Virus record (IMG/VR): IMGVR_UViG_3300027513_000011
Span: 1-64,000 of that record
DNA length: 64,000 bases
DNA from: a virus
Taxonomy: Duplodnaviria; Heunggongvirae; Uroviricota; Caudoviricetes
Direction: 5' to 3' (one strand)
Below are positions 3,902 to 38,208 of the stretch, one piece after another. Numbering within the stretch: position 1 is the first letter of the stretch; every line of letters begins with the position of its first letter. The position numbers were made by a program, and so were the translations under genes. The notes under the pieces were generated by a model. The model ran no database searches. It had not been told where the DNA came from and saw nothing but the letters and a program-made list of their open reading frames with translations.

Positions 3902-4215
3902 ACTCGATTCGCCGTTTTCTCAACAAGAGCCCTGACGGGCAGTTTGGGACGGCTACTGCGGCCGTTTACGTTTCCCACGACGATGATGACGGGACCGTCG
4001 ATATTGTTGAACTGGCCATCACTAACAATGGCGAGAAGGTCAGCTTCAGTCTCTGGAAGGGCTACTCCAACGGTGTTGCGTATATCGCCAAGGAGGGCGG
4101 TTCCATTGACGACTCCCCTCTTAGCGAGGCTCAAGTCGATGCGATGGAGATGATTACCAATCTGCGCGGGATCCTACAGGCGTTTGAGATCGCGGTGGGG
4201 GAACTGACCCCCTAG
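3898..4215 (+). CDS. hypothetical protein (105 aa)
   Basis: ORF track 3874..4215; internal ATG at 3898 coupled to upstream small ORF; plus-strand islet inside leftward operon. Confidence 0.45.
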   Translation: MNSIRRFLNKSPDGQFGTATAAVYVSHDDDDGTVDIVELAITNNGEKVSFSLWKGYSNGVAYIAKEGGSIDDSPLSEAQVDAMEMITNLRGILQAFEIAVGELTP

Positions 4216-5495
4216 CGGGACCAGGAAAGGTGCTTAACCGGCCCTTGGGGGTCGAACTGTGCCCCTATTTCCCCCACATACAGGGCTGCGGTCCTTCTGG
4301 ACCCCCTACCTGCGACCAAACTGGGTGTTCTGCGGTGCTGAACCAGGCTGGGGATCGGGTACCATGTCAGGATCTTCTTAGACTGGAAGTAGCGCGATAT
4401 CCGTAGGTCGTAGTTGTCCTCACGGCGCTTGTCCCCGAACGCGACCATCTCCTCGATGTGGGCGGTGGGGACGACAATGCCGACACCCCAGTTCACCCCC
4501 GGCATCGTGAACCAGGAAGGCAGTGCGCCCCCCCTCAACTTCCGCGACAGGGCACGGCCGGCGTAGAGGCACAATGGGGAGTCGGGGGGCGGGATCTGGA
4601 TGGCCTCTTTGACGAGCTCGATGAAGTTGGGCGGGATAACGGCGTCGTCCTGGAGAACGAGATGGTGGGTGGAGAACTCGTCGTAGGCGAGCATGGAGCG
4701 CCGGCCCGTATCCCAGCGGTTGTTGATCTGATCCCACACGATCGGGCCAACGATGTCCTGGCGGGCCAGCTCATCCACCAGATCTGACACCATCTCCTCG
4801 CGCTTTGGGTGCGCCATGATGCTGATGGATAGAGTCGCCGGCTTCGCCACCGAGTAGCACCATGTATCGGTCTTGCCGAACCTGCCCCGGAGCTCGTAAC
4901 CGTAGGGGGCGAGGAAGTCGTCTACGCGGGTACGGGCCTCGGCGGTGGACGCCTCGATGTAGAGCAGCGGTTGGTACATCTCCAGAATCCGCCGCGCCCC
5001 GGTGAGGACAGGGATCTCGCCGCCCTCAACGTCGATCTTGACGAGAGTGATAGGTTCCCGATAGTCGATCAGGTCATCTATGGCGTACTGGCTGATGTCG
5101 CCTCCTGGCTCGCAGTACGCCATCCCCGAGTTGGTGGGGTTGGGTGAGATCACCTTGACGCTACCGGGTCCGGCCCCCGCCGCGTATGGGAGCGGTATCA
5201 CCCGCGTAGCTAGTTTCACGTTGAACCCAAGGTTCATGTTCAACTGCTTGAAGGATTCCTCACTCGGTTCGAGGGCAACCACCTTGTAGCCCAGCGCCGC
5301 CAGCCAGAGGGTGTGGTTGCCGATGTGCGCTCCCACATCAATCGCCGTCCCCACCACGCCCCGCTTCTCAATATCGGACAGCAGGTCGAACTCGTACCAG
5401 TTGCGATTCTTGATGATGACCCGAGAGATGTGGTCTTGCGGGTTGCTCAGGTTGAAAGTGACCAGACCCGAGGGTGAGTTGAGGGCAACCTTCAC
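4212..5495 (-). CDS. FkbM-family SAM methyltransferase fused to a GT-A-like glycosyltransferase-like domain
   Basis: N-terminal IDVGAHIGNHTLWLAALGY...LVKIDVEGGE resembles FkbM (Methyltransf_21); C-terminal half has LVLQDD DxD-like motif; GTGA-coupled GTG start at ~5495. Confidence 0.55.
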   Translation of the reverse strand: MKVALNSPSGLVTFNLSNPQDHISRVIIKNRNWYEFDLLSDIEKRGVVGTAIDVGAHIGNHTLWLAALGYKVVALEPSEESFKQLNMNLGFNVKLATRVIPLPYAAGAGPGSVKVISPNPTNSGMAYCEPGGDISQYAIDDLIDYREPITLVKIDVEGGEIPVLTGARRILEMYQPLLYIEASTAEARTRVDDFLAPYGYELRGRFGKTDTWCYSVAKPATLSISIMAHPKREEMVSDLVDELARQDIVGPIVWDQINNRWDTGRRSMLAYDEFSTHHLVLQDDAVIPPNFIELVKEAIQIPPPDSPLCLYAGRALSRKLRGGALPSWFTMPGVNWGVGIVVPTAHIEEMVAFGDKRREDNYDLRISRYFQSKKILTWYPIPSLVQHRRTPSLVAGRGSRRTAALYVGEIGAQFDPQGPVKHLSWSR

Positions 5496-5713
5496 TTGTC
5501 GTCCTCGGGGGAGTAGAAGGCCACCCAATCGCTGAACTCTGGAGGAATAACCTTCGGGGCATCCTCCAGACCCTTCTCGATGTTCTTGCGCATCTGTCTC
5601 CTGCCGAATCGCGAACCGACCCAGAACCAGAAGATGGTGAAAATGAGGTCGTGGACGACATGTGACCACGGCCCCATCGTGTTGAAGTCAAACAAGCCGT
5701 TCATTTCGTTCAT
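5492..5713 (-). CDS. small membrane protein (73 aa)
   Basis: hydrophobic helix LIFTIFWFWVG; coupled to neighbours. Confidence 0.4.
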   Translation of the reverse strand: MNEMNGLFDFNTMGPWSHVVHDLIFTIFWFWVGSRFGRRQMRKNIEKGLEDAPKVIPPEFSDWVAFYSPEDDK

Positions 5714-6306
5714 GGGTCAAGATAGAATACTGCTAGGCGATCTGCAAGCACTCCGTACGGTAGCCCGCTCTGTGCAGAGAACTTGTCAACGACCCGCCGT
5801 ACCCCAGGGTTACGCGGGGTGTCGAAGTCGTCAAAAGCTACCACCCCCGTATCCGCCATGTGGGGGAGCCAAGCATCAAGATCAGCTTGGACCGACTGCT
5901 GGGAGTGGTCACCGTCAATGAACAGCATCCCCACAGGATACCCGTACATGTCGGGCCAGCGTTTACCGACCTCAGCTCCGAACCCCTGAATCGCCGTGAT
6001 CTGGAACCTGACCCCCGCCATGTTGATCTGCCTGTAGAACGCCTGCTTCACCTTCGGGTCGGTGAACCCGTGCTTGCCGGACACATTGCCTGGTGCATCC
6101 CAAGGCTCCACGGCGAACACATGGGCGCCTAGCCCGTACTTGGCCCCGTTGGCGAGGTAGCTGGTGGACTTACCCTTGTACGACCCGATCTCAACGATAG
6201 GGGTGGTTGGGGGGATCGTGGCGGCGAGGCGCGCCAGTTCCCGGCCCTCGTCCTCGGGGATTAGGCCGGAGAGGCCGGCTAGGAGGATCCAGTCAGGCTC
6301 GGTCAT
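5710..6306 (-). CDS. class I SAM-dependent O-methyltransferase (TylF/CmcI/macrocin O-MT-like)
   Basis: IVEIGSYKGKSTSYLA SAM-binding and LFIDGDH motifs typical of TylF/CmcI family. Confidence 0.65.
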   Translation of the reverse strand: MTEPDWILLAGLSGLIPEDEGRELARLAATIPPTTPIVEIGSYKGKSTSYLANGAKYGLGAHVFAVEPWDAPGNVSGKHGFTDPKVKQAFYRQINMAGVRFQITAIQGFGAEVGKRWPDMYGYPVGMLFIDGDHSQQSVQADLDAWLPHMADTGVVAFDDFDTPRNPGVRRVVDKFSAQSGLPYGVLADRLAVFYLDP

Positions 6307-6607
6307 TGGGGTTCGTGTCAGAGAAATTGGAAGCCTCTACAATCCCGGTGCCCAATCCGTAGCACCAGCCGCCACCATCTGCAAAGTCGCAGATCAGGTA
6401 ACGGGAAACCGGATTCCAGCCCCATCTGGCCGAAGCGATCAGGAACCAACTGGGAGTACGACCATAGTTGTGAACCCGACCCCATTTACCTACAACGGAT
6501 TCGGCGTCCTCAATGGTTAGCCCATCGGCTTGCTTCACCTGTAGGCGCGGGTGTGATCCAGATAGATATTGATATACGCCCTTCCATAGATTAATCAGTG
6601 CCTCCAT
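6293..6607 (-). CDS. hypothetical protein (104 aa)
   Basis: ORF track; operon packing. Confidence 0.4.
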   Translation of the reverse strand: MEALINLWKGVYQYLSGSHPRLQVKQADGLTIEDAESVVGKWGRVHNYGRTPSWFLIASARWGWNPVSRYLICDFADGGGWCYGLGTGIVEASNFSDTNPNDRA

Positions 6608-6610
6608 GGC

Positions 6611-6817
6611 TCAGTCACCTATCACTTCAATTGTCGGCTCGAAGTTCCACTCCCAAACCAAGTCGCGGACCCCGACACTTTCAAGAAGCTCCTGCACTTC
6701 CTTAACGGTAAGGGACTCGGGATCCCTCGGCGTGGGGAACCAACCAGCGACCTCCCGTGCGGGAAATGACTCCTCAAAGATGAGTGAGATGAGGAATGAA
6801 TCAGCCATCAACGGCAC
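6611..6817 (-). CDS. hypothetical protein (68 aa)
   Basis: ORF track. Confidence 0.35.
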   Translation of the reverse strand: MPLMADSFLISLIFEESFPAREVAGWFPTPRDPESLTVKEVQELLESVGVRDLVWEWNFEPTIEVIGD

Positions 6818-7058
6818 CCCTTACTCCTAGATACACGGCTATTTCCTTTGGCGTCCATAGCTTCTCTCCTCGGAAGTACCAGCCGCACCCGCGCCAGATG
6901 TGGCCGTAATCCCAGTGAACGTGAACGGGGTCAGCCGTTGGATCCTCCTTCGGGCTGCAAGGGTGGATAGGCCATACCTTCCCGTCACCATCTTCCATTC
7001 CGGGGTGGTGACATTCCCATGACGCGAATGCTTCCCTTTTCTCTGGGTATTCATCCAC
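6801..7058 (-). CDS. hypothetical His/Trp-rich protein (85 aa)
   Basis: ORF track. Confidence 0.35.
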   Translation of the reverse strand: MDEYPEKREAFASWECHHPGMEDGDGKVWPIHPCSPKEDPTADPVHVHWDYGHIWRGCGWYFRGEKLWTPKEIAVYLGVRGAVDG

Positions 7059-7239
7059 GGCGGTTCTTCCTTTCGATCCAAGGGGGGTGCAACACGTAGT
7101 AGGGCCAAATAAGAACGCTGATAATGGTACTCCTCACGTCGGTCGCCACCCACGCGGCGACGACCCCGCCCATGACAAGATAGGCCCACAGGCCCCAGAT
7201 GACCGATCCCATCATTTCCGTTTCCTCCTGTTGTTCCAT
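7051..7239 (-). CDS. small membrane protein (62 aa)
   Basis: hydrophobic helices WGLWAYLVMGGVVAAWV. Confidence 0.35.
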   Translation of the reverse strand: MEQQEETEMMGSVIWGLWAYLVMGGVVAAWVATDVRSTIISVLIWPYYVLHPPWIERKNRRG

Positions 7240-7829
7240 AGATGCACGGCGTATGCGTTCGGGTGCTTGTCGCCTTCCCGCTCCAGCTCATTCCACAGGT
7301 ACGGGAAGAAGTACTGCTTGGGCCACAGCATGAACCTATCGGCACCCAACAGGAACGGTGTTATGTACTGTGGACCGGACTTCACGGTGTTCGAGCCCGG
7401 CATCATCGACCTCTCCCCCAGACCCATGATGATGTCCCGCATCACGCCGTAACCTAGCCGGGAGGCGAGGATGGCATTGCTAGCCCACTTCCCCGGTACC
7501 TCCCACGCCGCCCAGCCGTCCGCGTCGACCATCAACGGGTCGATCGGCTTCTGAGGCTTGAAATCCATGTCCACCCACACGCCGCCGTACTGGTGCAGGA
7601 TCTCGTAGCGGGCGATGTCAGAGCGGTATTGATGGGGTTCCTTGGGGTTGATCTCCTCGGCGTTCGCCCAAAGGTGCCAGTTGTTGAGCCCCATGCGCTC
7701 AATGCTTCGCTCGTCCCACCACATGTACTCCCAGTTCGGGTGCAGGGTTTTCCACGCCGCCCGGTAGCCGAGGTATTCGATAGGGATTTCCGACCCTATC
7801 CACATCTGATGGATGATCTTGGGTATCAC
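7212..7829 (-). CDS. glycosyltransferase, GT32-like (Och1-type DXD sugar-binding region)
   Basis: PKIIHQMWIG N-terminal motif and RSDIARYEILHQYGGVWVDMD DXD region characteristic of Gly_transf_sug/GT32. Confidence 0.65.
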   Translation of the reverse strand: MIPKIIHQMWIGSEIPIEYLGYRAAWKTLHPNWEYMWWDERSIERMGLNNWHLWANAEEINPKEPHQYRSDIARYEILHQYGGVWVDMDFKPQKPIDPLMVDADGWAAWEVPGKWASNAILASRLGYGVMRDIIMGLGERSMMPGSNTVKSGPQYITPFLLGADRFMLWPKQYFFPYLWNELEREGDKHPNAYAVHLWNNRRKRK

Positions 7830-8621: not shown

Positions 8622-8848
8622 AGTTCCTCCACTATCTGCGTGTGTCCGGCATGGAACTCCTCAGCGACCTCCTGCATCCACGATCCGCTCTGCGTCCACT
8701 TGGATCCACAGGAGCAGAACACAACCGACTCGTCACCCCTGGTGGCATCAACCGCATCCTGCTCCTCGGCGCGAACCTCTAGGTAGTGCGCGTAGCAGAG
8801 GCCACGGTTGAGAACGGGTTTGTCGCAACTCTCTGCGGTGCAGCTCAT
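8618..8848 (-). CDS. hypothetical Cys-rich protein (76 aa)
   Basis: internal ATG (MSCTAESCDKP) with ATGA overlap to SPFH gene stop. Confidence 0.35.
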   Translation of the reverse strand: MSCTAESCDKPVLNRGLCYAHYLEVRAEEQDAVDATRGDESVVFCSCGSKWTQSGSWMQEVAEEFHAGHTQIVEEL

Positions 8849-9906
8849 CCCTGCCCATCCTCCTCTGACCCTATGCTGTAGGGATCGCTGTCCGGTTCTT
8901 CCTCGGGCATCACGGGTGGGTTCTCGTCCGGCAACTGCACGATCACGTCTAGCGGCTCCCCGTCGCCCAGCAGCGTAGAGGGCAGCCTGCCGTCCCACTG
9001 GGTCAACCGCATGTAAGTCAGAATGTCGATGGTCAGCGACTCCTGAATCAACCTGTTCGCTTCGGCCACACCTTGGCCCTCCAGGATCGCAGCCTGCCGT
9101 AGACCCTCAGCCTCTTTGATGGCCTGCTCGGCCTCGAACTGAGCCTGCTCGACCCGCCTCTTGGCCTCGGCCACGTTCTGCTCAGCGATAACCTTGTCCC
9201 TGACCGACTGCATGAACTCCTTGTCGAACACGGCGTCAGCGACGTTGGCGTAGTCCACGATGATGCCGTACTCGGCCAACTGGCCTGCCACCGCCTCAAC
9301 AATGGACACGGCGAGCTCGTCCCTGTTCTGCGGGAAGTCCTCGGCTGTCACCTGCCCGATCGCAGCCTTGGCGTGCTGGTCGATGGCGGGCTTGATGACC
9401 GTATCGCCGTAGTTCATGCCGACCTCTTGGTAGATCTCGGCTGCGCGCTTGGGGTCGATGTGGACGTTCACCGCGATGGGAACCACGATCTCCTGGAGGT
9501 CACTGCTTTGGGCGTAGAACTTGTCGTAGGTGTAGACCTGTGTGCGCACGTTTACGGGGGTGACGTGCTGGAGCCACGGGATAACGATGGACAGACCTTC
9601 GGGGCGCTCGTCGGGGGATACGCCACCGCTGAGGCTGTACACGACGCCGCGGTGACCCGCAGGGACGAAGGCGAGGGCCGGGGAGACGAGGAGCATGAAG
9701 GCGAGGGCGTAGAGGGCGATACGGAAAGACTGAGCGCCACTAGCCGGCCTCATGTACTCTGTCAGGGGCCGTTGTTCCCCATCCTCGATGACTGGCAGTG
9801 GCTTGTTGAACGCCCTGCGCCGCCTCATCCCCTGCAGGGTGAAAACGAGCGTGATGGCAAGCGGTACTAGCCAGATCGCAGGCCCCACTATGGTTTGGTA
9901 ATTCAT
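8845..9906 (-). CDS. SPFH/band-7 (prohibitin/HflK/C-like) membrane protein
   Basis: two N-terminal TM helices, SPFH-like core then long EA-rich coiled coil (AEQNVAEAKRRVEQAQFEAEQAIKEAE), acidic C-tail. Confidence 0.65.
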   Translation of the reverse strand: MNYQTIVGPAIWLVPLAITLVFTLQGMRRRRAFNKPLPVIEDGEQRPLTEYMRPASGAQSFRIALYALAFMLLVSPALAFVPAGHRGVVYSLSGGVSPDERPEGLSIVIPWLQHVTPVNVRTQVYTYDKFYAQSSDLQEIVVPIAVNVHIDPKRAAEIYQEVGMNYGDTVIKPAIDQHAKAAIGQVTAEDFPQNRDELAVSIVEAVAGQLAEYGIIVDYANVADAVFDKEFMQSVRDKVIAEQNVAEAKRRVEQAQFEAEQAIKEAEGLRQAAILEGQGVAEANRLIQESLTIDILTYMRLTQWDGRLPSTLLGDGEPLDVIVQLPDENPPVMPEEEPDSDPYSIGSEEDGQG

Positions 9907-10784: not shown

Positions 10785-11007
10785 CGAAGATCACCTTATC
10801 TGGTCTGTAGCCCCTTACTCTGTCTATCAAGACCCACCTACATTGAACGGGAATACGATGAGTTGGCCCATCTGAGTAAACATCTATCGACAGTAACACC
10901 TTGTCTGGGTGGGGATTGAGGCTGGTACAAGGTTCACCGATGCCGGGAACATTGTAGTACCAAAAGTATTTCTTCTGTCGGGCGCACACCCATTCATACT
11001 CGGTCAT
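10771..11007 (-). CDS. hypothetical protein (78 aa)
   Basis: ORF track; coupled to FtsH-like gene. Confidence 0.35.
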   Translation of the reverse strand: MTEYEWVCARQKKYFWYYNVPGIGEPCTSLNPHPDKVLLSIDVYSDGPTHRIPVQCRWVLIDRVRGYRPDKVIFDEVV

Positions 11008-13028
11008 GCGCTCAGCACTCCATCCATCTCGTCAAGCAGCTCGTGGATCTCCGTGCCCCTGACCTCGCCCTTGTCCGCGATGAGCCTAGCCACTGCCTCG
11101 ACCTGTGGCACCTTGCTCGTCAACAGAAGCCCCACCTTTTCCAACGCCTCCTCAAGTATCGCCTCGGTCGCCAGCCCTAGCGCAACCTCGTCCTTGTCGT
11201 AACTACCGATCTGTCCACCATGACCGAGGGTGACCATGTGCATTGCCCTCTTTGTTGCTGCCGGGCCGTCTCCGCCGTGACCGTTGGACGCCTGGCCCAG
11301 AATCAACTTCTCGGCCACGCGGGAAGCCAACGAGATCTGCACGTCAGCCAACAGATCCTCCCTGGTCAGCAGCCAGTCATCCCATTTCGAGGTCGGGGCC
11401 ACGAAACCACCCTTGCTCCCTCGTGGCAGAATACTCGCCGTCCAGATGTCCTGGCGGTGTCTGTTCAGGTAGTGGAAGGCAACGGCGTGTCCGGCCTCAT
11501 GCACGGACACGCCCCACACGGCCTCCTGGCGTTCCCACATGTCGCCCGGCTCCCCGAACTTGATGATTGACATGGCCTTGGTCACATCGTCAAAGGTCAC
11601 CACACCCGGCGTGTCCCGACCATCCCTGAACGTCAGCAGCACGGCCTCGTTCACCACGTCCTTGATGGAGGCGCCGGAACCCTGATGGTCGTGGCGAGCG
11701 ATCCAGGCGATGTTGTCCTCGGTGAGTGTGTGGCTGGCGATCTTCCCCAGATACCCCTCATAGGTCCGCTGCCGGCCGTCAGCCCTCGGGTAGTCCACCT
11801 GCACCTTGCGTCCGAACCGCCCAGCCCTGAGCAGCGCCGGGTCCAGCACTTCCAGCCTGTTCGTGGCGCCCAGCATCATGTAGCGGTAATGCGGTGGCGG
11901 GATCGGCTTGAACCCGAGCATCTTCAGCATCTTGTTCAGGAAGCCGCGAGGTTCCTCCATGCCGTCCATCGCGGCAAGGAAGGTGGTGAGCGCCTGGGAG
12001 GACTGGTTGGAGATGAAGATGGGGGCGGGCTCGTCGGGGTCGTAGGGGACACAGCCCTCATAAACCGGAGTTGAGGTAGCGGAGCCGTTGATAAAGCGTT
12101 GGTACGATTCCTTTACCGCCGAGAAGTTCATGCCCAACCTGTCCAGCGTCTCCCCTATCACCCCGCCGCGGCTCCCCATGACATCAATCTCGTCGTAGAA
12201 CACGATGACGCCACCATGTCTACGAGCTTGTTTACGGATCTCCCTGAACAGCATGAAGATCTTGAGCTCGGCTATCCCCATGAAGGTCGAGGCTGTGGCT
12301 CCCGGTGGGTACAGGATCAGAGGCTTGGAGCTCGCGTTGGCCGCAGCCTTAGCTAGATAGGTCTTACCGACTCCGGGCGGGCCATACAGAATGACACCCT
12401 TCGGTAGATACCCACCAGCCTCCTCTACCGCTGTGGCATCGTTAAGTATCCTTACCTGCTCCATGATCGCCTCACGGGCCTTGTCTTGCCCCCACACATC
12501 GTCAAATGTCGTCTGGATGGTGCCGGGCTGGATCACCTTGTACGTTCCCATCCTCACCATCGAGTAGAAGAAGAACACCATGTTGAGCATCGAGAACATG
12601 ACGCTGATGGCGATGGCGATGAAGGTGGGGACGTTCTCGTAGGCGATGGGGATGGTGCGGATCACGCAACTGACAGCTCCCTCGCACTTGTCGGTCAGTG
12701 TGGAGAGGATCGACCCGTAGATGTAGAGGAACACGAACCATGTGAAGAGGCGCTGGAGCCGGATCCAAGCCTCGGGGGGCACGCGCTTCTTGTACCTGCC
12801 CAGGTACTCGGCTGCCCCCTCGTGCCACTTCGCCACGGTGCTGCTGGTGACCAGCAGTGTCTCGTAGACGGACCTCGCCACGAAGAAGGCGAAGGTGAGG
12901 ACAAGGAAGCGTGCCAAGAGGGAGGTCTGGGCCGGCATCGGGTCGGCCCACTCGTTCGCCACCAGCCATAGGGCGATGACCGCCGGTACCTTCAGCTTCT
13001 CGACCAGCGGTTTCTCAACCCGCTTCAC
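11004..13028 (-). CDS. FtsH-like ATP-dependent zinc metalloprotease (AAA+ plus M41 peptidase, 2 TM)
   Basis: Walker A GPPGVGKT, Walker B VIVFYDEID, SRH ATNRLEVLDPALLRAGRFGR, zinc site HEAGHAV, two N-terminal TM helices; start set to GTG ~13028 with GGAAGGG RBS (ORF track extends to 13229). Confidence 0.75.
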   Translation of the reverse strand: MKRVEKPLVEKLKVPAVIALWLVANEWADPMPAQTSLLARFLVLTFAFFVARSVYETLLVTSSTVAKWHEGAAEYLGRYKKRVPPEAWIRLQRLFTWFVFLYIYGSILSTLTDKCEGAVSCVIRTIPIAYENVPTFIAIAISVMFSMLNMVFFFYSMVRMGTYKVIQPGTIQTTFDDVWGQDKAREAIMEQVRILNDATAVEEAGGYLPKGVILYGPPGVGKTYLAKAAANASSKPLILYPPGATASTFMGIAELKIFMLFREIRKQARRHGGVIVFYDEIDVMGSRGGVIGETLDRLGMNFSAVKESYQRFINGSATSTPVYEGCVPYDPDEPAPIFISNQSSQALTTFLAAMDGMEEPRGFLNKMLKMLGFKPIPPPHYRYMMLGATNRLEVLDPALLRAGRFGRKVQVDYPRADGRQRTYEGYLGKIASHTLTEDNIAWIARHDHQGSGASIKDVVNEAVLLTFRDGRDTPGVVTFDDVTKAMSIIKFGEPGDMWERQEAVWGVSVHEAGHAVAFHYLNRHRQDIWTASILPRGSKGGFVAPTSKWDDWLLTREDLLADVQISLASRVAEKLILGQASNGHGGDGPAATKRAMHMVTLGHGGQIGSYDKDEVALGLATEAILEEALEKVGLLLTSKVPQVEAVARLIADKGEVRGTEIHELLDEMDGVLSA

Positions 13029-13082
13029 GATAGTTGTCGCCCTTCCTGTCGTACCCTCCACTGTAACACACCCTAGAGGGTC

Positions 13083-13112
13083 TTGACAACCCACCATTCC
13101 GTGCTGTAAGTT
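13083..13112 (+). promoter_or_regulatory. sigma-70-like promoter TTGACA-N18-TAAGTT; start codon at predicted TSS (leaderless)
   Basis: hexamers read directly; GTG of 13119 gene ~7 nt after -10; divergent intergenic region. Confidence 0.4.
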
Positions 13113-13118
13113 GGATGG

Positions 13119-13409
13119 GTGCAGGAGAACGCGAAAGCCGCCCTTCCTACCCCCGCTGACCTTCTCAGGGCTATCCACGCGGACGGGAACAGGAAGGAGT
13201 GCGCGTTCGTCGCTTGGGCGCGCGATCACGATGACGAGTACCTAGCCCCACTGCGCGAAATCATCTTCGGTGACTCGGTGTCATGGATGAGGGCTGCCGA
13301 ACTGATACAATCACTGGGCATTGACCGCAGCCACACCACCATCGGCAACCATCGGCGCCGGAAGTGTAAGCAGTGCAATGAGTTCTTCCAGCTAGAGGCA
13401 GGCACATGA
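13119..13409 (+). CDS. hypothetical protein, possible HTH DNA-binding (96 aa)
   Basis: first gene of rightward operon; ATGA-coupled to next. Confidence 0.45.
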   Translation: MQENAKAALPTPADLLRAIHADGNRKECAFVAWARDHDDEYLAPLREIIFGDSVSWMRAAELIQSLGIDRSHTTIGNHRRRKCKQCNEFFQLEAGT

Positions 13410-17437: not shown

Positions 17438-18216
17438 GCACTCCCGCCCCTCGTTTCTACCATGACATAGATCCCGGCCCTGTGGACATGGGGAGGTTTC
17501 TCTCCCAACCTCGACCCTACGCCAATGGGCCGGTCCTGGCGGGCCACGTCGATCGCAATGCCGCCCTTATTGCCGACGTGGCCCGTCTCTACATTCCTGT
17601 CGGCGCCAAGGTGCTCGACATGACGTTCGGCAAGGGGCGCTTCTGGTCCGATATTGAGTCAGTCATGTGGAACGACTGGTTCACCCTGTATGACAACGAT
17701 AACGACCTGAAGCTCGACACTTCATTCCAAGACGACTTCCGTCACACCCATTTTCAGCCGGAAACCTTCGACATCGTTGTGCTCGATCCGCCATACAAGT
17801 CAGGTGGCGCTCATTCCCCCGGCCCGATGGTGAATGACTACGGGCTCGACGCCATCAAGTCCACCACGCCCTCGGGCCACGGGAACGCCAAGGTGGTGTG
17901 GGAGCTCTACGAATCCGGTTTCCACGAGGCTTACCGGATCCTGAAGCCCAACGGTCTGCTCTGGTTCAAGTGCCAGGACTTTGTTGAGTCAGGCAAGCAA
18001 CACTGGTTCCACATTGAGTTGTTCAAGCTGGCCCAGATGTTCGGGTTCTTCCCCAAGGATCTGTTCGCCTTGGTGGGGACCAAGAAGCCGATGATGCGGC
18101 ACAAGACCCAGCACCATGCGCGCAAGAACCTGTCGTACCTGTGGGTGATGCAGAAGTCAGATCGGGGCTGGGAGACTAAAGGCGAGCTGGAGAAGCTGGC
18201 TCAAGTCCAGTCGTAG
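17434..18216 (+). CDS. DNA methyltransferase (N6-adenine/N4-cytosine type, DPPY motif)
   Basis: motif I-like TFGKGRFW then motif IV VVLDPPY. Confidence 0.6.
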   Translation: MSTPAPRFYHDIDPGPVDMGRFLSQPRPYANGPVLAGHVDRNAALIADVARLYIPVGAKVLDMTFGKGRFWSDIESVMWNDWFTLYDNDNDLKLDTSFQDDFRHTHFQPETFDIVVLDPPYKSGGAHSPGPMVNDYGLDAIKSTTPSGHGNAKVVWELYESGFHEAYRILKPNGLLWFKCQDFVESGKQHWFHIELFKLAQMFGFFPKDLFALVGTKKPMMRHKTQHHARKNLSYLWVMQKSDRGWETKGELEKLAQVQS

Positions 18217-18737
18217 ACGTAGAGATCTGACGGTGACCACGGACCAGCCTGGAAGAACACCCTCTCCCACCGCTTCGGCACTTCCTTCGACCAGTTACGG
18301 TGCCTGACGTGCGGGGCGTAGTCCTCGGGGTCAGAGTCGAAGTCAGATGAGTAGATGATGACTCGCCTATTGGCCGAGAACAGCAACCTCATGTGCTCGT
18401 AGAAGTCGTGGTCGTCAACAAGGTGGTAGATCACGTCGATGGACATGTGGGTGGCGCGAGGCTTGATCGAATCTCCGTCACGGAGAACCGCGAACTCCCA
18501 GTTGGGCCGGTCGATGAGATCCGCTGCTGCCATGATGGCTGAAGCTGAAGGGTCAATTCCCTTGTAGTCCCGGATCCCGTACAGGTTCGCCTGCTCGCCG
18601 TCACCGCAGCCGATGTCCAGCGTGTCGTAGAGCGCCCAGGTGTTGACCCGCTTCGCCTTCCACTCCGCTGCCTCGCCCTGCGAGCCCAGGCCGGAGTTGC
18701 CCCCCTTGCGATAGCGTTCCTCCCAGTACTGCGTCAA
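18201..18737 (-). CDS. class I SAM-dependent methyltransferase
   Basis: DIGCGDG SAM-binding motif; convergent with DNA MTase gene. Confidence 0.5.
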   Translation of the reverse strand: MTQYWEERYRKGGNSGLGSQGEAAEWKAKRVNTWALYDTLDIGCGDGEQANLYGIRDYKGIDPSASAIMAAADLIDRPNWEFAVLRDGDSIKPRATHMSIDVIYHLVDDHDFYEHMRLLFSANRRVIIYSSDFDSDPEDYAPHVRHRNWSKEVPKRWERVFFQAGPWSPSDLYVYDWT

Positions 18738-25039: not shown

Positions 25040-26845
25040 ATGTTTCCTACTCAGGAGATTGGAAGAATGAACGACAAGGAGCTTGCTGAGCTTCTGGAGC
25101 GGTTCGGTTGCACCGATGGGTGTGACGACATGGAACTCGCTGACCTTGACAAGCTCCACACCGAGCTCGCAAGCCGGCGTTCTGCTTTGGAGGATTCCGC
25201 GGACAAGGACAACCTGACCAAGATCGGTCAGTACACCGCCCTTATCGCCAAGGTGGAGAGCAACATTGCGCATCTGCGCGCCGAGTTTGCCGCCGAGGTC
25301 GAGAAGGTCAAGTCTCAGGCTCTTGGCACCTTCAACGCCGAGACTGAGGAAGTGGCCGAAGTGGCCGAGGTTGAGGCTGTTGTGGAAGCGGATGACGCTG
25401 CCATTGATGACAGTCTTGCCAAGTTCACCGCCGCCCGTCCCTCCACCAACGTCGAGGACGAAGGCCCCGGTAAGGCGTTCAGGGGAAAGGTTGTGTACGC
25501 CCCCAACTCGGACGCCGAGGGCAATCCCATCGGTGGCGAGAGGCTGAACACGTCGGTCGATCTGGCACGGGCCATCTCGAACTCCATCGACCAGCTTGGC
25601 AACTTCGCCGGCCGCATGAACGTGATCCACGGCATGTACGAGAACGACGCCGCAATGGTGCAGCTCTCGGCTCCGATGGATCCCGAGCGGACCACTGTGG
25701 AACTGGCCCAGGCTGTCGAGCTCTACAACCAGCGCCAGGAAGAGCACCTGACGGCTGACGGTTCGTTCTGCGCACCGATCACCCCGTTCTACTCCTTCTG
25801 CGATCTGGCGAACGAGGACATTTCGACCACGCAGCAGAGCCTCCCGACCGTGCGTACCATCCGTGGCCGCGTGCAGTACATGGAGACTCCCACGCAGGAT
25901 CAGTTCTTCGATCAGTGGGACGGCATTGACGACGATCTTTTCCAGGGTGTCGGCACCCGGTTTACGGAGGTTGATTCGCAGGCTGTCTCGGCTGCCGATG
26001 AGTCCACCTGGAAGCAGTGCGTCGAGGTCGACTGCCCGGAGCAACAGCCCCCGGCTGAGCTTGAGGCGCATTACACCTGCGTTACCTACAAGCACTTCAC
26101 CTGGAAGGCTTACCCGGAGTACATCGACCTGTACACCCGCAAGGCCCTGCTCGCCCACGACATCAAGGAGAGCCTGAGCCTGCTCCGGCAGATCCAGGGT
26201 GTCGCCCAGACCGGGCTCACCTTCGAGGCGTTCCCCGGCTCGATCGGCGGGTTCTTCCTGGCACTGGACACGCACGCAACTGCCTACCGCGAAGCCTACT
26301 GGCTGCCTCGGACGCAGGTTCTCGACATCGTTCTCCCCGAGTGGGTGCTGAACATGCTGAGGGCTGCCTACGTCCGGCGTGCCGAGGGCACTGAGGAAGC
26401 TGAGGCCCTGCGCGCTTCGGACTCGTTCTACACGAGCCTGTTCGCAAGCGTCAACCTGCGGCCCAACTTCATCACCGGCTGGCAGCGTCTGGCGACGAGC
26501 ACTGATGGGGCCGGCACCTTGCTGGACCCGATTGCGGCTCGCCCCGATGGTGTCGCCGTGTCGAACACCTGGCCCAACTCGTTCCTCGCCCTCCTGTGGG
26601 TGCCCGGCTCTGTGGTTCTCCTGGAGGATCCGAGCTGGAACATCGCACTGGAGCGGCTGCGGGACACCACGCTCCAGCGGCAGAACAAGTACAGCCTGTT
26701 CGTAGAAACCTTCTACGGGCTCGCCTACCCCTGCCCCTACGCCGTTCAGGAAATCCTGTTCAACTTCTGCCCCACCGGGCACGCTGCTGGCAGGGAAACG
26801 CTGAACTGCGCCAACCTGACGAGCGAGAACTCCCCCTCCTCGTAG
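25040..26845 (+). CDS. major capsid protein (HK97-like) with N-terminal coiled-coil delta/scaffold-like domain
   Basis: 601 aa following protease; N-terminal coiled coil then large globular domain; followed by hairpin terminator. Confidence 0.65.
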   Translation: MFPTQEIGRMNDKELAELLERFGCTDGCDDMELADLDKLHTELASRRSALEDSADKDNLTKIGQYTALIAKVESNIAHLRAEFAAEVEKVKSQALGTFNAETEEVAEVAEVEAVVEADDAAIDDSLAKFTAARPSTNVEDEGPGKAFRGKVVYAPNSDAEGNPIGGERLNTSVDLARAISNSIDQLGNFAGRMNVIHGMYENDAAMVQLSAPMDPERTTVELAQAVELYNQRQEEHLTADGSFCAPITPFYSFCDLANEDISTTQQSLPTVRTIRGRVQYMETPTQDQFFDQWDGIDDDLFQGVGTRFTEVDSQAVSAADESTWKQCVEVDCPEQQPPAELEAHYTCVTYKHFTWKAYPEYIDLYTRKALLAHDIKESLSLLRQIQGVAQTGLTFEAFPGSIGGFFLALDTHATAYREAYWLPRTQVLDIVLPEWVLNMLRAAYVRRAEGTEEAEALRASDSFYTSLFASVNLRPNFITGWQRLATSTDGAGTLLDPIAARPDGVAVSNTWPNSFLALLWVPGSVVLLEDPSWNIALERLRDTTLQRQNKYSLFVETFYGLAYPCPYAVQEILFNFCPTGHAAGRETLNCANLTSENSPSS

Positions 26846-26941: not shown

Positions 26942-27604
26942 GTGTTCCGACGCAAGGATCCCAGTATCCCCCACGAGGACATTCAGGGGGAACAGCACGG
27001 GTGGCGCACCTGGCGGATAGGTAAGTGGGCTCCCGACCAGCGCCCCATCCTGATCGGTCAGTACGCAACTTCGTGGCTGTTCCCCACCCTCAAGGCTGTC
27101 CATGTAGGGAGGGGTGAACCACCCCACGACCCTACCGAGGCCCCGTCTAAGGACTGTGCCTGTGGCATATGGGTACAGAAATTGGAAGTGGATTCGACTC
27201 GCTGGCTGGGTTCCTGCATCAATGCTTCCGGCTACGTCAAGATCTGGGGGCGCTACTTTGAGGGCGACCGCGGATGGAGGGTTCAGAACGCCACCATCAC
27301 CGGGCCGCTCACCATCGAAATGCACTGCGCTATGTGGAGCGCGCCCGAGATGCACAGCGGTATGCTCGGGGCCTTCAAGTGCAGCGATGATGTGGTTCGC
27401 ATCCATGACAACGGCAACGGATACACCTGTTTCTGCGCCCGTCACATTCCCTCCACCTACCCTCTCGTTACTCCCTACTATGATGGGCGCGCAGATACAA
27501 CCGTCGTCTACAACGTAAGCGAGTTCGCATCAATGGTGGTGCCGGTCTTGACCAAGCGGTACGGCTGCGATGTGTGGCTTTGGAACGATCTACTGGAGGA
27601 CTAA
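26942..27604 (+). CDS. hypothetical Cys/Trp-rich protein (220 aa)
   Basis: ORF track. Confidence 0.45.
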   Translation: MFRRKDPSIPHEDIQGEQHGWRTWRIGKWAPDQRPILIGQYATSWLFPTLKAVHVGRGEPPHDPTEAPSKDCACGIWVQKLEVDSTRWLGSCINASGYVKIWGRYFEGDRGWRVQNATITGPLTIEMHCAMWSAPEMHSGMLGAFKCSDDVVRIHDNGNGYTCFCARHIPSTYPLVTPYYDGRADTTVVYNVSEFASMVVPVLTKRYGCDVWLWNDLLED

Positions 27605-27796: not shown

Positions 27797-28564
27797 ATGG
27801 ACGTAGCCTATGTGGTGCGCCCTGGTGAGGCCAACCAGGAGCTGCGCTACTCGTTGAGATCACTCATCAACGTCCCCCATGACAGGGTGTTCATCGGTGG
27901 CTACGTCCCGAAGTGGACACGCAATGTGGTGCCGGTACCTCGCCGGCAGACCTCGATGCGGTTCGTCAACTCGTCGCTGAACCTGTACGCCATCTGTCAG
28001 TCGGACATCTCTGAGCAGTTCATCTTCTTCAACGACGACTTCTTCGTGATGAGGAAGCTCACCGAGATAAAGCCCTTGAACCGCGGGCCTCTGGATGAGG
28101 TCATGGAGAGGCACAGGGTCAAGTTTGGTAGGAACTCCTATTACCACGGGATGGCGACCACGCGGGACTGGCTACTGCATCGCTACAAGATCACTGAACC
28201 TCTCTCTTACGGGCTCCATATCCCTATGGTGGTGGACCGAGACTTGATGTGGCGTCTGTTAGAGGAAACCCGGATCGACAAGCCCCAAGGGAGGCCGCAG
28301 TATCACATGCGGACCATATACGGAAACGTGGCAGAGGTCGGCGGCGATGCTGTTGGGGACGTGAAACTGGCGGGGACCAGGAAGGGCGTCGAGAGGTACC
28401 GTTTCCTTTCAACCAGTGAGAAGTCGTTTGCCAGCGGAAACTCGGGCCGGCTGATCCGGGCCACCTTCACCGACCCCTCCCCCTATGAGGCCGCTGTGGT
28501 GCGCCCTACGCCCAAGCAGCGGGTGGACCGCAGGATGGTGAAGCGGCCCGTCATCAACCGCTAA
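27797..28564 (+). CDS. Stealth-family protein (CR1/CR2; putative hexose-1-phosphoryl transferase)
   Basis: N-terminal DVAYVVRPGEANQELRYSLRSL resembles Stealth CR1 (ELRYSLRS); FIFFNDDFFVMRKL resembles CR2. Confidence 0.55.
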   Translation: MDVAYVVRPGEANQELRYSLRSLINVPHDRVFIGGYVPKWTRNVVPVPRRQTSMRFVNSSLNLYAICQSDISEQFIFFNDDFFVMRKLTEIKPLNRGPLDEVMERHRVKFGRNSYYHGMATTRDWLLHRYKITEPLSYGLHIPMVVDRDLMWRLLEETRIDKPQGRPQYHMRTIYGNVAEVGGDAVGDVKLAGTRKGVERYRFLSTSEKSFASGNSGRLIRATFTDPSPYEAAVVRPTPKQRVDRRMVKRPVINR

Positions 28565-28603
28565 CAATCAGGCTGTGTGGGCCGTGGGGGTATTCTGCTC
28601 GCC

Positions 28604-29734
28604 ATGACCGCATGTACCTTCTTTGAGGTAGACCCTCCCTCGCGTACGCCATCGCCCGATAACCTGATCGCAACCTTGGAGCGAGCTGGGCTGGTCACGC
28701 CGGACACCACGAATGGGCACTGGATCGGCGGTATCCAGTTCCGTCCCCGTTCCTGTGGTGGTGGCGGCATCCATGTGGACAACTGCTTCTTCAGCTCCGA
28801 GTCCCCCGACTCGCCAGGCGAGGAGGAGAACTGCTCGCTCAAGGTGTTCAACACCTTCCACGATTCGGTGGCCTGGAAGTCCATGCTCATCTTCTCCTCA
28901 GTCCATTGCTCCACGTTCTCCGACAGTGCCGACGTGAAGGCCGAGGCAGTTTCGCAGTTCGATATCTCCCGCGACGCCATCGCTGCCTTCGAGCTCTACT
29001 ACGGGCAGGCGAACCGGCTGGAAGTGTCCGGCGAAACCTGCGACGACGGTGACCCGGTGCCGGCTAACCCCTTCATCGCTGACGCCCTCGCCAACTCGTT
29101 CCCCACCGCTGTCACGCCGGGCGACTGGACGACCGCGACGACCTTGGATCCTGTCGCCGGCATGGCCCTGATCCTTGACGAGATTGCGGCCACGGCTGCG
29201 GGTGCCCAGGCCGTCATCCACATTCCGCCCGGCCTCGCTGCGGTGTGGCTGGCACTGGAGCTCATCGACCGGGTAGATGGCGTGTTCCGTACCTCCGTTG
29301 GTGGACATCTCGTGATCGCCGCCCCCGGCTACTACGGATCTACCCCTCTCGATGACACCGATCCGGCCAACTTCGACGGCCACTCTCCGGGCTTCGTCAT
29401 TGACGGCGGCTTCTGGGTCTACGTTACGGGCGGCATGGGTGTGTACCTAGATACGGTGGACACCAGCAACACCTTGGAGCACAGACGCAACAACTACTTC
29501 ACGGTGGTCGAGCAGTTCGTTCTCCCCTACTTCGATCCCACCTGCCCTCGGTTCGCCCTACCGATCGGTCGGGATTGCTCCAGCCTCGACCTTGACTGGT
29601 CTGTTACGGGAACTCCCGTTGAGCAGATCTTCAACGACCAGTACATCACCTGCGTTGACCCTGATGGTGGCAACGAGGGCGTACCTATGGACCCCGCCAT
29701 CTTCGTAGGCGTGAACTACCCATCTTCTAGCTAA
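28604..29734 (+). CDS. hypothetical structural protein (376 aa)
   Basis: ORF track 28577..29734; first ATG at 28604; sits in structural block. Confidence 0.45.
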   Translation: MTACTFFEVDPPSRTPSPDNLIATLERAGLVTPDTTNGHWIGGIQFRPRSCGGGGIHVDNCFFSSESPDSPGEEENCSLKVFNTFHDSVAWKSMLIFSSVHCSTFSDSADVKAEAVSQFDISRDAIAAFELYYGQANRLEVSGETCDDGDPVPANPFIADALANSFPTAVTPGDWTTATTLDPVAGMALILDEIAATAAGAQAVIHIPPGLAAVWLALELIDRVDGVFRTSVGGHLVIAAPGYYGSTPLDDTDPANFDGHSPGFVIDGGFWVYVTGGMGVYLDTVDTSNTLEHRRNNYFTVVEQFVLPYFDPTCPRFALPIGRDCSSLDLDWSVTGTPVEQIFNDQYITCVDPDGGNEGVPMDPAIFVGVNYPSSS

Positions 29735-30821: not shown

Positions 30822-31094
30822 TACTCACCCACTACGGCGCAGCCCCCCAGCGACCTAGATCTGCTGGGGGGTTTTCGCGTTATGATCCCTAAGTGTCTAA
30901 ACCTCGCCCTCGCAATGATGTCGCAATCACCCTTTTCGCCCTCGCCGCAGCCACATACGAGATAATCCTCGGAGGCGGTCGGTTCACTGTGTTTGCGTTC
31001 CTCTCAACCCTACTCGGGGTGCCTGTTATAGCCAGTCTTGAGTCGGCGCGCCGTGAGAGGCGAAACGCGAGGAGCAACTAAGTACCATTGCCTG

Positions 31095-31742
31095 ATGGCT
31101 GACTGCACATGCGCTTGCCCTGGTCCCACCTGCATCACGGGCGACGACACTATCGACGCCACAGATGCCGGAGGTTGCACCACTCTCGACCTGGTGATAT
31201 CGGACTCGAACACCGTTGACCTGACAACTGTAAACAACCGGCTAGAGGCCACGATGATCGTGGACCCGGCCAACAACGTCATACAGGAACCGGGCAATGG
31301 GCTCCATGTACCTCAGTTCGCGGTCGGCGCGTCGAGCAAGGAACAGTCGTGGACTGAAACAAGTATCGGGGAGAATGTGCGTCACACCACCGACCTATTG
31401 GTCCCTACTGGTGACTGGTTTATCGCCGTGTTCTGGAATGCTTGGATGCGGAAAGTGAATCGCAACGTATCTGAGCAGGGAGCCGAAACCTTCTGGTTGC
31501 TGAGTGTGGATGAGTTCAGGGGTCGGCGTAAGCGTCACCGCTGGGGGGCCACTGCTGGGCTGCTTGGTCATGCTCAAACCCAAGTTGCTGTAGGCGACAG
31601 TTACGCGAAACGGATAACTCTTGAGGAAACCACTCTCATCGAGTGCAGCGTGCTAACCGGGATCACGTCGAGTCGCAATGAGGACAACGAGGTTGACTAC
31701 CACTCATCCATCCTGTCCGTTCAGGCGATAAGGGATTTCTGA
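31095..31742 (+). CDS. paralog family protein A (N-terminal CxCxC motif, FWNAW and GLLGH motifs)
   Basis: ORF track 31038; first ATG 31095 puts Cys motif at N-terminus as in paralogs B and C. Confidence 0.45.
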   Translation: MADCTCACPGPTCITGDDTIDATDAGGCTTLDLVISDSNTVDLTTVNNRLEATMIVDPANNVIQEPGNGLHVPQFAVGASSKEQSWTETSIGENVRHTTDLLVPTGDWFIAVFWNAWMRKVNRNVSEQGAETFWLLSVDEFRGRRKRHRWGATAGLLGHAQTQVAVGDSYAKRITLEETTLIECSVLTGITSSRNEDNEVDYHSSILSVQAIRDF

Positions 31743-31743
31743 G

Positions 31744-32400
31744 ATGTCTAATTGCCAGTGCGTTTGCTCCCAGGCAGTGTGCCTAGAAGTTGACCCGCCC
31801 CTGACCTCGGCGTTCACCTGCGGATGCGTTGAGATTGGGGTCGAGACAGCGGATACTGACACTGTGAACCTGGGCCTCGACAGTCAGGGATCCCTGACAG
31901 GGGATGCGATTGTGTCCCCGTCAGATGGCAACCAACTCACCCCGAAGGCCAACGGCCTGTTCGTGCAACAGCCCTGCTACGGGGCCACAAGCACCACCGG
32001 CTCGTGGACGGAGAGCTCCCGCGTGTATGTGGTCCGGCAGTCGGTTTCCCTCACCTTGGATGCCGGACAATGGCTCATCTATGGGTTCTGGAATGCGTGG
32101 ATCACCAAGACCAATGCCACCGCCTCTGAGGAGTTGGCACGGTTCGGTGCAAAGGTTGACATCGACGGCGAGGAAGGCCCGCCGTCCTACTGGCAATGGG
32201 GCGACACCGAGGGCGTATTGGGTCACTTGAACGCTGAAGCGTCATTTGGTGCCCACAACACGAGGCTTATCAACGCTGGCAACGGGGGAACCTTCGACAT
32301 TGATGTGCAAGCCTTCCGCGAACCGGATGGGGCCTCCAACAATGTTGATGTGTCGGCGTCAAGGGTATCAGCCATTGCCATCAAGAGGACGTGGGACTGA
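31744..32400 (+). CDS. paralog family protein B
   Basis: shares CxCxC, W[FL]IYGFWNAW, GVLGH with A and C. Confidence 0.5.
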   Translation: MSNCQCVCSQAVCLEVDPPLTSAFTCGCVEIGVETADTDTVNLGLDSQGSLTGDAIVSPSDGNQLTPKANGLFVQQPCYGATSTTGSWTESSRVYVVRQSVSLTLDAGQWLIYGFWNAWITKTNATASEELARFGAKVDIDGEEGPPSYWQWGDTEGVLGHLNAEASFGAHNTRLINAGNGGTFDIDVQAFREPDGASNNVDVSASRVSAIAIKRTWD

Positions 32401-33041
32401 TGCCCATATGCAACTGCGAACATGACCTGGATCAATGCGTGGCCGGGGTCGCGCCGATTCGTCACGTCCTCGACGGCGGTGGTTGCGTGCAGGTGGGGCT
32501 CGACGCCACCGACTCGAACACTCTGGACTTCGAGACAGCGGGAGGCTTGACCGCCACCGCCATCATCGACCCTGACGCGGCCAACGTCTTTGAGGCCACG
32601 GCATCGGGTCTACGCGTCCTGCGTCAAATCATTCCCAACGCCTCCGGCTACACCAATTTCATCACGAACACGGCTGCATTTGCCATCAAGCAGTCCACTT
32701 CCATCGCCTTGCCATCGGGTGGCAACTGGTTCGTTCAGGCATGGTGGTCGGCGTGGGCCGAGAAGGACACCGATGAGACATCTGCCACCGCTTCGCGCCT
32801 GGAGTGGCGTATCGAGATCGCCGGAACCGATGGCCCCATACGACGGTGGAACTGGGGCGAGCGCGAAGGTTTGCTGGGTCACGCCAACTCCCGCATCGGG
32901 CTACAGGATTACTTCGGCATGGTGGTCGCGGGTAACCAGACCTTCAATGTGAACATTCGGACAGCTCGCAACAACGCGGGTGTTGACAACAATGTGCAGA
33001 TCTCGGCCAGTCGGATCATAGCTATCGCCTACAAGCTGTAG
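32400..33041 (+). CDS. paralog family protein C
   Basis: ATG at 32400 overlapping stop (TGATG); motifs shared with A and B. Confidence 0.5.
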   Translation: MPICNCEHDLDQCVAGVAPIRHVLDGGGCVQVGLDATDSNTLDFETAGGLTATAIIDPDAANVFEATASGLRVLRQIIPNASGYTNFITNTAAFAIKQSTSIALPSGGNWFVQAWWSAWAEKDTDETSATASRLEWRIEIAGTDGPIRRWNWGEREGLLGHANSRIGLQDYFGMVVAGNQTFNVNIRTARNNAGVDNNVQISASRIIAIAYKL

Positions 33042-38112: not shown

Positions 38113-38208
38113 CTATCCATTCTACCACAGGTGGAGCAGTGGGAAATCGAATCCCAGTCCCGAGCCGAGCCTTCCGGTTTACGGTCGGTCGAACGCCATC
38201 CGCTGCCC

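Follow-up and report, generated by a model that had tools for sequence, protein, structure and literature searches.

A putative virion glycosylation and O-methylation system in an uncultured phage of an actinobacterial-type lineage

What is modified by a group of sugar-active enzymes that a phage encodes side by side? The question is raised by positions 4212-7829 of a 64,000-nucleotide stretch of Caudoviricetes DNA (IMG/VR record IMGVR_UViG_3300027513_000011, positions 1 to 64,000; the whole stretch is referred to here as the window). There, a leftward gene array encodes a GT32-family glycosyltransferase, an S-adenosylmethionine (SAM) methyltransferase and a protein in which an FkbM-type methyltransferase is fused to a GT-A-like domain. 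An initial annotation, made without database searches, had suggested that these enzymes glycosylate and O-methylate the virion. We put at roughly 0.65 the probability that they form a phage-encoded, presumably cytoplasmic system that places O-linked glycans on virion proteins and methylates the sugars of these glycans. The idea gained from homology to the characterised system of mycobacteriophages Che8 and Corndog and the function is a prediction, while three details of the annotation, namely the membrane proteins, the TylF assignment and the acceptors, proved wrong or unlikely. The system appears to resemble the recently described virion glycosylation of actinophages, with a different mix of enzymes, and not to be of a new kind.

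The three enzyme open reading frames (ORFs) all lie on the minus strand (Table 1), and the motifs MIPKIIHQMW, YGGVWVDMD and HHLVLQDD were all found in their translations; Pfam and profile searches left the family assignments largely intact. The C-terminal half of the fusion protein had no Pfam match, and PF01755 (Glyco_transf_25) was not matched at an E value of 0.1 or better; Che8 gp110 and Corndog gp38 barely pass the cut-off of this family (32.3 and 24.5 bits against 24). The GT25-like family phrog_854 was matched at 2.4e-24. A profile of the gp110-like domain gave no real match to sequences in the PDB, and a fold comparison was therefore used. The AlphaFold models were confident (predicted local distance difference test, pLDDT, of 93.7 for the whole fusion protein and 93.9 for the GT-A domain alone), and the domain adopts a GT-A fold in which strand 4 is followed by an acidic DXD-type motif, as the initial annotation had anticipated. 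The Q-D-D of HHLVLQDD is invariant across the gp110-like family, and the top structural matches in BFVD include gp87 of the cluster-F phage Ardmore and many GT25 proteins of giant viruses.

The relationship of this domain to known capsid-modifying enzymes was seen both by blastp (9e-6 for Che8 gp110; 2e-8 for Corndog gp38) and when a profile of 41 homologues was aligned with Che8 gp110 by hhalign (probability 98.9%, E 1.7e-17, 187 columns). Che8 gp110 and Corndog gp38 are described in a 2025 report (PMC12363180) as the two glycosyltransferases that are essential for mycobacteriophage capsid glycosylation. This homology is the strongest single link between the window and virion glycosylation, and we propose that the GT-A domain is an initiating protein O-glycosyltransferase. 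The FkbM assignment of the N-terminal half also stood: PF05050 was matched over residues 53-201 (E 1.5e-13) and TIGR01444 at 1.1e-20, both above cut-off, and residues 1-214 have a class-I methyltransferase fold. A search of NCBIfam gave nothing further than FkbM.

The GT32 assignment was likewise upheld, with a match to Gly_transf_sug at 46.7 bits, where the cut-off is 23 (E 5.4e-12). The translation carries the N-terminal P-K-I-I-H-Q-x-W element (PKIIHQMW) and, as DMD, the DXD metal/nucleotide-sugar motif. By sequence, the protein is a GT32-family glycosyltransferase, and its homologues in related phage contigs adjoin FkbM, Methyltransf_24 or Stealth genes.

The third enzyme had been called a TylF/CmcI-type methyltransferase. 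It is indeed a SAM methyltransferase, matching Methyltransf_24 (E 6e-21, 75.7 bits, cut-off 26.3), but the match to TylF (PF05711) covered just the C-terminal 70 residues and stayed below the cut-off of 23 bits (14.5 bits, E 0.021), and CmcI gave no match. Corndog gp35 and Che8 gp108, unlike the window protein, are both above the TylF cut-off, and its Pfam family is shared with gp35 and with the C-terminal half of gp108; Pas34 of the Actinoplanes phage phiAsp2 is, in part, 38% identical to it. Its translation contains VEIGSYKGKST, a glycine-rich SAM-binding motif, and LFIDGDHS, an acidic D-x-D-H metal site, with the roles that such motifs have in cation-dependent O-methyltransferases generally. 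Among solved structures, its best matches are 6g7d (E 5.8e-10) and CalS11, a thymidine diphosphate-rhamnose 3'-O-methyltransferase (0.024). The former was named 'Methyltransferase domain protein' by its depositors. We take it to be the M. hassiacum mannoside 1-O-methyltransferase MeT1, for which a literature search gave no confirmation; on that unconfirmed identity it presumably acts on a soluble methylmannose oligosaccharide precursor.

The array that holds these genes is unbroken from at least 8302 down to 4212. Neighbouring genes overlap by 4-28 nucleotides or sit 3 nucleotides apart (6607/6611), no terminator-like site was found on the minus strand of the array, and a gene for a MazG-like pyrophosphatase directly abuts the GT32 gene. 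Where the initial annotation had seen four small membrane proteins, we counted five small ORFs, with a hydrophobic segment of transmembrane grade in one alone (7051-7239, KD19 1.85; the other four had KD19 <=1.12). Searches of all five against Pfam and PHROG gave no match; the Methyltransf_24 gene also lies within the span that they cover (5492-7239). A hydrophobicity scan found no transmembrane-grade segment in the glycosylation enzymes, which we take to be cytoplasmic.

Elsewhere in the window, a 178-residue ORF at 18201-18737 (minus strand) gave only sub-threshold matches to methyltransferase families of Pfam (class-I, E ~1e-3). Its C-terminal residues resemble, as judged without an alignment, those of a weak methyltransferase at 1498-2028 of L014, a contig considered below. 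It may be a third methyltransferase of the system, of uncertain membership.

The same enzymes were found together elsewhere. Fusions of the gp110-like domain to FkbM occur in ~45 metagenomic proteins and in Streptomyces sp. NRRL B-1347, fusions to GT32 in two proteins (P0076, P0081) and a fusion to Methyltransf_24 in another (P0099). In the 87-kb contig L003, GT32, Methyltransf_24 and fusion genes lie within 5.6 kb. On the genomic contig of Streptomyces sp. NRRL B-1347 (L006), the GT32 and fusion genes overlap by 4 nucleotides, among large ORFs that resemble phage structural genes and have no Pfam matches, one of which, at 1453 residues, is of tape-measure size. In the phage contig L004, which has an SU10-type portal and adaptor, the gene immediately before that of the adaptor encodes a GT32-gp110 fusion; it lies downstream of the portal gene and has unannotated ORFs around it. 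Two contigs belong to the capsid lineage of the window: L015 (47% identical) has contiguous GT32, Methyltransf_24, FkbM and stand-alone gp110-like genes (the last 38% identical) three genes downstream of the capsid gene, and L014 (55% identical) has FkbM, GT32, sulfotransferase and weak methyltransferase genes in an operon divergent from the terminase genes. The common core is a gp110-like glycosyltransferase with a Methyltransf_24 enzyme, and the elongating enzymes vary. As the combination recurs in divergent phages and the domains are fused pairwise, we conclude that the genes probably form one pathway. This recurrence also bears on the reading that the genes are unrelated accessories gathered by chance, with separate substrates such as soluble methylated oligosaccharides or other small molecules: natural-product methyltransferases do occur in both the FkbM and Methyltransf_24 families, and the presumed substrate of 6g7d is soluble, but recurrence and pairwise fusion make this very improbable.

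The sulfotransferase of L014 (2025-2588, minus strand) was identified by a match to Sulfotransfer_4 (26.8 bits against a cut-off of 22.8) inside the FkbM-GT32 operon, and hints at sulfated glycans.

A further candidate enzyme lies in the structural region. The initial annotation had raised the possibility of sugar-phosphate transfer through a Stealth gene at 27797. Taken alone, the protein falls short of the gathering score of Stealth_CR2 (E 6.7e-5, 23.5 bits against 39.4). A profile built from six orthologues, however, matched the catalytic domain of GNPTAB, the N-acetylglucosamine (GlcNAc)-1-phosphotransferase (5.9e-9 and 2.5e-8), and CpsY of M. tuberculosis (1.2e-6), and this match spans ELRYSLRS, F-x-NDD, H-x-P and, near the C-terminus, FP-x-PS-x-E. 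CR2 was matched in five of the six members and CR4 in one, at 0.007; CR3-like H-x-P and CR4-like FP-PS-YE elements can be seen when the sequences are aligned. The orthologue lies just downstream of the capsid gene, either directly or past one or a few ORFs, in each of the five related contigs examined (L013-L017), and in L007 a Stealth gene adjoins GT32 and two GT7C-like genes. The profile homology and the conserved position next to the capsid gene support a link between this gene and the system, and it is plausible that the enzyme decorates a capsid glycan with sugar-1-phosphate.

Between the capsid and Stealth-like genes lies a Cys/His-rich ORF of 220 residues (26942-27604, plus strand) with no family match, which is kept in L014 (30% identity) and L016 (74% identity).

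Which virion proteins would be the acceptors? The initial annotation had named linkers of a secreted protein and of tail proteins. These linkers, rich in serine, threonine and proline, do exist, but they are probably not the main acceptors. The protein at 33930-35009 (plus strand), encoded between the major tail and head-tail adaptor genes and kept in L016, has a mucin-like (TTEPP)n linker and a Sec-type signal peptide. This (TTEPPTTT)n protein is an unlikely acceptor because the signal peptide would export it away from the presumably cytoplasmic enzymes; in actinobacteria, linkers of this kind are more commonly modified by mannosyltransferases of the host membrane.

The better acceptors are likely to be the C-terminal (S)PSS tails of the capsid protein, of the capsid-module protein at 28577-29734 and of the major tail protein. 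Ends of the PSS or PSSS type occur in three of the 70 putative genes of the window, and these three genes are the capsid (...NSPSS), the capsid-module (...YPSSS) and the major tail (...TSPSS) genes. We considered whether the tails represent a DNA repeat and rejected this, as the codons differ among the three genes.

Capsid homologues end in PSS, SSS, AAS, TAS, PSA or ASV, and in three relatives the capsid and tail-protein endings are alike: SS in both in L013 (capsid TSSS, tail protein AASS), SV in both in L014 (AASV and APSV) and SPSS in both in L016 (DSPSS and ASPSS). In L013 the orthologue of the capsid-module protein ends in AESS. Among 77 representatives of the tail-protein family with at most 50% mutual identity, 45 (58%) have a terminal serine (AS in 18, GS in 14, SS in 7; composition-based P ~1e-33). 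A cysteine 8-15 residues before the end is also found in 45 of the 77, and both features in 35. All the capsid homologue tails have a cysteine 9-13 residues from the C-terminus. This survey of cysteine and serine covered positions 26807-26842 and 33820-33849 of the window and the protein sets P0169-P0176 and P0178-P0254. The capsid and tail-tube subunits of Che8 and Corndog end in GS or DS (...KTGS, ...SDGS, ...LVGS, ...KGDS). In 2023, Freeman and colleagues reportedly placed the glycans of Che8 and Corndog at the C-terminus of these subunits, and the serine ends are consistent with such an attachment.

One relative, L016 (82% identical; ENA ERZ25039494 contig_644), comes from an assembly riddled with frameshifts, in which the genes for the MuF-like, Stealth-like, 28577-29734-like and TTEPP proteins are broken up or cut short. 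Its apparently tail-less capsid protein was considered as a counter-example and rejected; it reflects a frameshift in this poor assembly, and the next frame gives ...DSPSS.

Taken together, we propose the following sequence of events. The gp110-like GT-A domain would initiate a glycan on the capsid protein, on the major tail subunit and possibly on the capsid-module protein, at a serine that is the C-terminal residue or adjoins it. The GT32 enzyme would lengthen the chain, to which the Stealth-like enzyme may add sugar-1-phosphate, and the Methyltransf_24 enzyme and the FkbM domain would use SAM to O-methylate two different sugar positions. The nucleotide-sugar donors would be supplied by the host, since no genes for sugar-nucleotide synthesis were seen among the window ORFs scanned. 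The product would be a methylated-glycan coat on head and tail tube, as in Che8 and Corndog.

Several observations weigh against virion glycosylation. The support comes from homology, synteny and tail motifs, and at only 24% identity to Che8 gp110 the substrate specificity can shift. The cassette lies outside the structural operon, on the opposite strand and at a distance of 11-15 kb from the terminase gene, and is preceded by genes for FtsH-like, SPFH and MazG-like proteins. An Lsr2 DNA-binding domain, an unexpected partner for an enzyme that glycosylates capsids, is joined to the gp110-like domain in four metagenomic proteins (P0068, with PF23359 at E 2.5e-12; P0074, P0094 and P0114, by precomputed annotation), a hint that some members of the family may work in another context. 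The C-terminal serine of the tail-protein family could serve another purpose. Finally, the serine tail is not kept in the L014, L015 and L017 orthologues of the capsid-module protein, which is for this reason the less certain acceptor.

In another reading, the enzymes remodel a host cell-envelope glycan (a cell-wall polysaccharide, a teichoic-acid-like polymer or a glycolipid) and so would prevent superinfection or help release, as lysogenic-conversion glycosyltransferases do. Bacterial GT32, GT25-like, FkbM and Stealth enzymes act on capsule, lipopolysaccharide and exopolysaccharide; CpsY is among the Stealth matches, and the Pfam neighbours include Caps_synth and Glyco_transf_25. The leftward operon that holds the cassette is non-structural and also encodes a membrane-associated SPFH protein, an FtsH-like protease and, inside the cassette, one small transmembrane protein. 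The enzymes, however, are without a transmembrane-grade segment, and the scanned ORFs yielded no flippase, GtrA/GtrB-like or polyprenol-linked component. Capsid proteins are the substrates of the closest characterised homologues, and in relatives the genes adjoin capsid, portal or adaptor genes, the Stealth gene being tied to the capsid gene in five of them. We consider an envelope substrate unlikely.

Modification of the phage DNA, for example with glycosylated and methylated hypermodified bases that evade restriction, is a poorer fit still. It would give a place to the MazG-like gene that abuts the GT32 gene, to a thymidylate-synthase-like gene ~5 kb from the cassette of L003 and to the Lsr2 fusions, and relatives of the Methyltransf_24 enzyme are annotated as 'DNA methyltransferase' in databases. 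These labels look like transfers of a family name, however, and the nearest solved structures are 6g7d and CalS11, the latter a sugar O-methyltransferase. No gene for a base hydroxymethylase or a DNA kinase was seen among the window ORFs scanned, the homologues gp110 and gp38 are tied to capsid glycosylation, and the tail motif common to capsid and tail proteins would be left without a role. We regard a DNA substrate as improbable.

Glycosylation of the virion thus remains the reading that we prefer, and a broader generalisation can be offered tentatively, as a possibility that we ourselves hold doubtful. A broad, mostly uncultured lineage of Rosebush-like actinophages might tag capsid and tail tube with a Cys-x(9-12)-Ser-COOH end and decorate it with a modular kit, consisting of a gp110-type initiator core, variable elongating glycosyltransferases, up to three methyltransferases, a capsid-linked Stealth enzyme and, in some relatives, a sulfotransferase. 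If this were true, phosphodiester-linked, methylated or sulfated glycans, so far unreported on phage particles, would be expected, and virion glycosylation in actinophages would be far commoner than the 2023 report suggested, since 58% of the tail-protein representatives end in serine. Phage virion glycosylation is said to have been first reported in 2023, from a few mycobacteriophage clusters only, and reportedly shields particles from antibodies; such shielding matters for phage therapy. Matched C-terminal serine tails on capsid and tail-tube subunits would provide a simple sequence-level predictor of acceptors which, if verified, would allow genome-wide surveys of glycosylated phages and guide the engineering of glycan coats.

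Table 1. Positions in the window of the putative glycosylation enzymes, the small ORFs among them and the candidate acceptors
Feature	Coordinates	Strand	Basis or remark
GT-A domain of the fusion protein, Che8 gp110/Corndog gp38 family (residues ~215-427 + stop)	4212-4853	-	phrog_854, hhalign
FkbM-type methyltransferase domain of the fusion protein (residues ~1-214)	4854-5495	-	PF05050, TIGR01444, class-I fold
Small ORF	5492-5713	-	no Pfam/PHROG match
Class-I SAM methyltransferase, 198 aa, putative sugar O-methyltransferase	5710-6306	-	PF13578 Methyltransf_24
Small ORF	6293-6607	-	no Pfam/PHROG match
Small ORF	6611-6817	-	no Pfam/PHROG match
Small ORF	6801-7058	-	no Pfam/PHROG match
Small ORF with transmembrane-grade segment	7051-7239	-	KD19 1.85; no Pfam/PHROG match
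GT32-family glycosyltransferase, 205 aa, candidate glycan-elongating enzyme	7212-7829	-	PF04488
Major capsid protein, tail ...CANLTSENSPSS, candidate acceptor	25040-26845; tail codons 26831-26842	+	phrog_777, 2e-51
Minimal Stealth-like protein, 255 aa, putative hexose-1-phosphate transferase	27797-28564	+	between the capsid gene and 28577-29734
Capsid-module protein, end ...VNYPSSS, possible third acceptor	28577-29734	+	phrog_779, 1e-23
Major-tail-protein-like subunit, end ...CDFTGTSPSS, candidate acceptor	33115-33852; tail codons 33838-33849	+	phrog_792, 3e-8; Rosebush-like gene order

The window (~60% G+C) is part of a large phage genome and contains terminase, portal, MuF-like, capsid, tail-subunit, adaptor, tape-measure and minor-tail genes, in an order similar to that of Rosebush-type (cluster B) actinophages and of phiAsp2. 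The phage is an uncultured member of an actinobacterial-type lineage, known from metagenome assemblies only; the same genome is present in ENA ERZ27267613 and Logan SRR5468956. Among isolated phages, the capsid protein reaches just ~23-25% identity at best, to the 'major capsid hexamer' of cluster-B mycobacteriophages, Tsukamurella phage TPA2 and others, and the capsid-module protein was not matched by blastp to the Rosebush-type 'major capsid pentamer protein'. Megablast of the 3.6-kb enzyme region against 50,697 phage records found no nucleotide match, tblastn of the capsid-module and major tail proteins against phages found none, and a scan of the capsid protein against viral_contigs also gave no match.

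Other genes of the window were noted in passing. Upstream of the glycosylation genes, in the same leftward array, are genes for an SPFH/Band_7 protein (8845-9906, minus strand) and an FtsH-like protein with AAA and peptidase M41 domains (11004-13229, minus strand), a pair also found in L015. Three tandem paralogues (234, 218 and 216 residues) occupy 31038-33041 (plus strand) between the amidase-like and major tail genes; judged by cross-hits to their L016 counterparts, the groups are ~28-34% identical to each other, and one longer gene takes their place in L013 and L014. A block of ~13 kb that parts the head and adaptor genes from the tape-measure gene holds a tRNA-repair pair, polynucleotide kinase and RNA ligase (46683-48663, minus strand), and a tRNA-Ser(CGA) gene (38130-38224, minus strand).

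How does the predicted system compare with those already known? A combined glycosyltransferase and methyltransferase that acts on a capsid glycan is found in A064R of the chlorovirus PBCV-1, a multidomain protein with rhamnosyltransferase domains from a giant virus of eukaryotes whose glycans are N-linked; we know of no sequence-level homology between it and the window enzymes. The Stealth hexose-1-phosphotransferases (GNPTAB, CpsY and the meningococcal capsule polymerases) share profile homology with the window protein, but GNPTAB is far larger than its 255 residues, CR1, CR3 and CR4 were not individually detected in it and, unlike those enzymes, it is phage-encoded and tied to a capsid gene.

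Closer in arrangement is pas33-pas35 of phiAsp2, where a Methyltransf_24 enzyme (Pas34) is followed by a translationally coupled gp110-like glycosyltransferase (Pas35, 29% identity) in a phage with Rosebush-type structural genes and a tail protein, Pas16, that ends in ...CGCQALSS. In contrast to the window, phiAsp2 has a GT2 enzyme (Pas33) and neither GT32 nor an FkbM domain; its methyltransferase is part of a 596-residue protein and its cassette directly follows the tail genes.

The closest parallels are Che8 gp108-110 and Corndog gp35-38, which, like the window, combine a gp110/gp38-type GT-A enzyme with Methyltransf_24. For the Corndog type, one report (PMC11600133) states that capsid and tail tube are modified by an O-methyltransferase and three glycosyltransferases. 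The gene for Corndog gp35, a TylF/Methyltransf_24 protein, lies directly upstream of three glycosyltransferase genes, and Che8 gp108 joins a GT2 domain to one of the Methyltransf_24/TylF type. A methyltransferase and a glycosyltransferase are thus joined in one polypeptide in both cases, with GT2 in Che8 (gp108) and with FkbM and a gp110-like domain in the window. The cassette adjoins the capsid genes in Corndog and in relatives of the window phage, whereas in the window a leftward operon at a distance holds it. GT2-type enzymes are absent from the window, which has instead GT32, an FkbM-type enzyme as second methyltransferase and, beside the capsid gene, a Stealth-like gene. All three phages have a terminal serine on capsid and tail-tube proteins, within (S)PSS and with an upstream cysteine in the window and within GS or DS in Che8 and Corndog. 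The same core of gp110-like and Methyltransf_24 enzymes is seen here in a distant, uncultured lineage, in the company of new partners: GT32, FkbM and a Stealth-like transferase.

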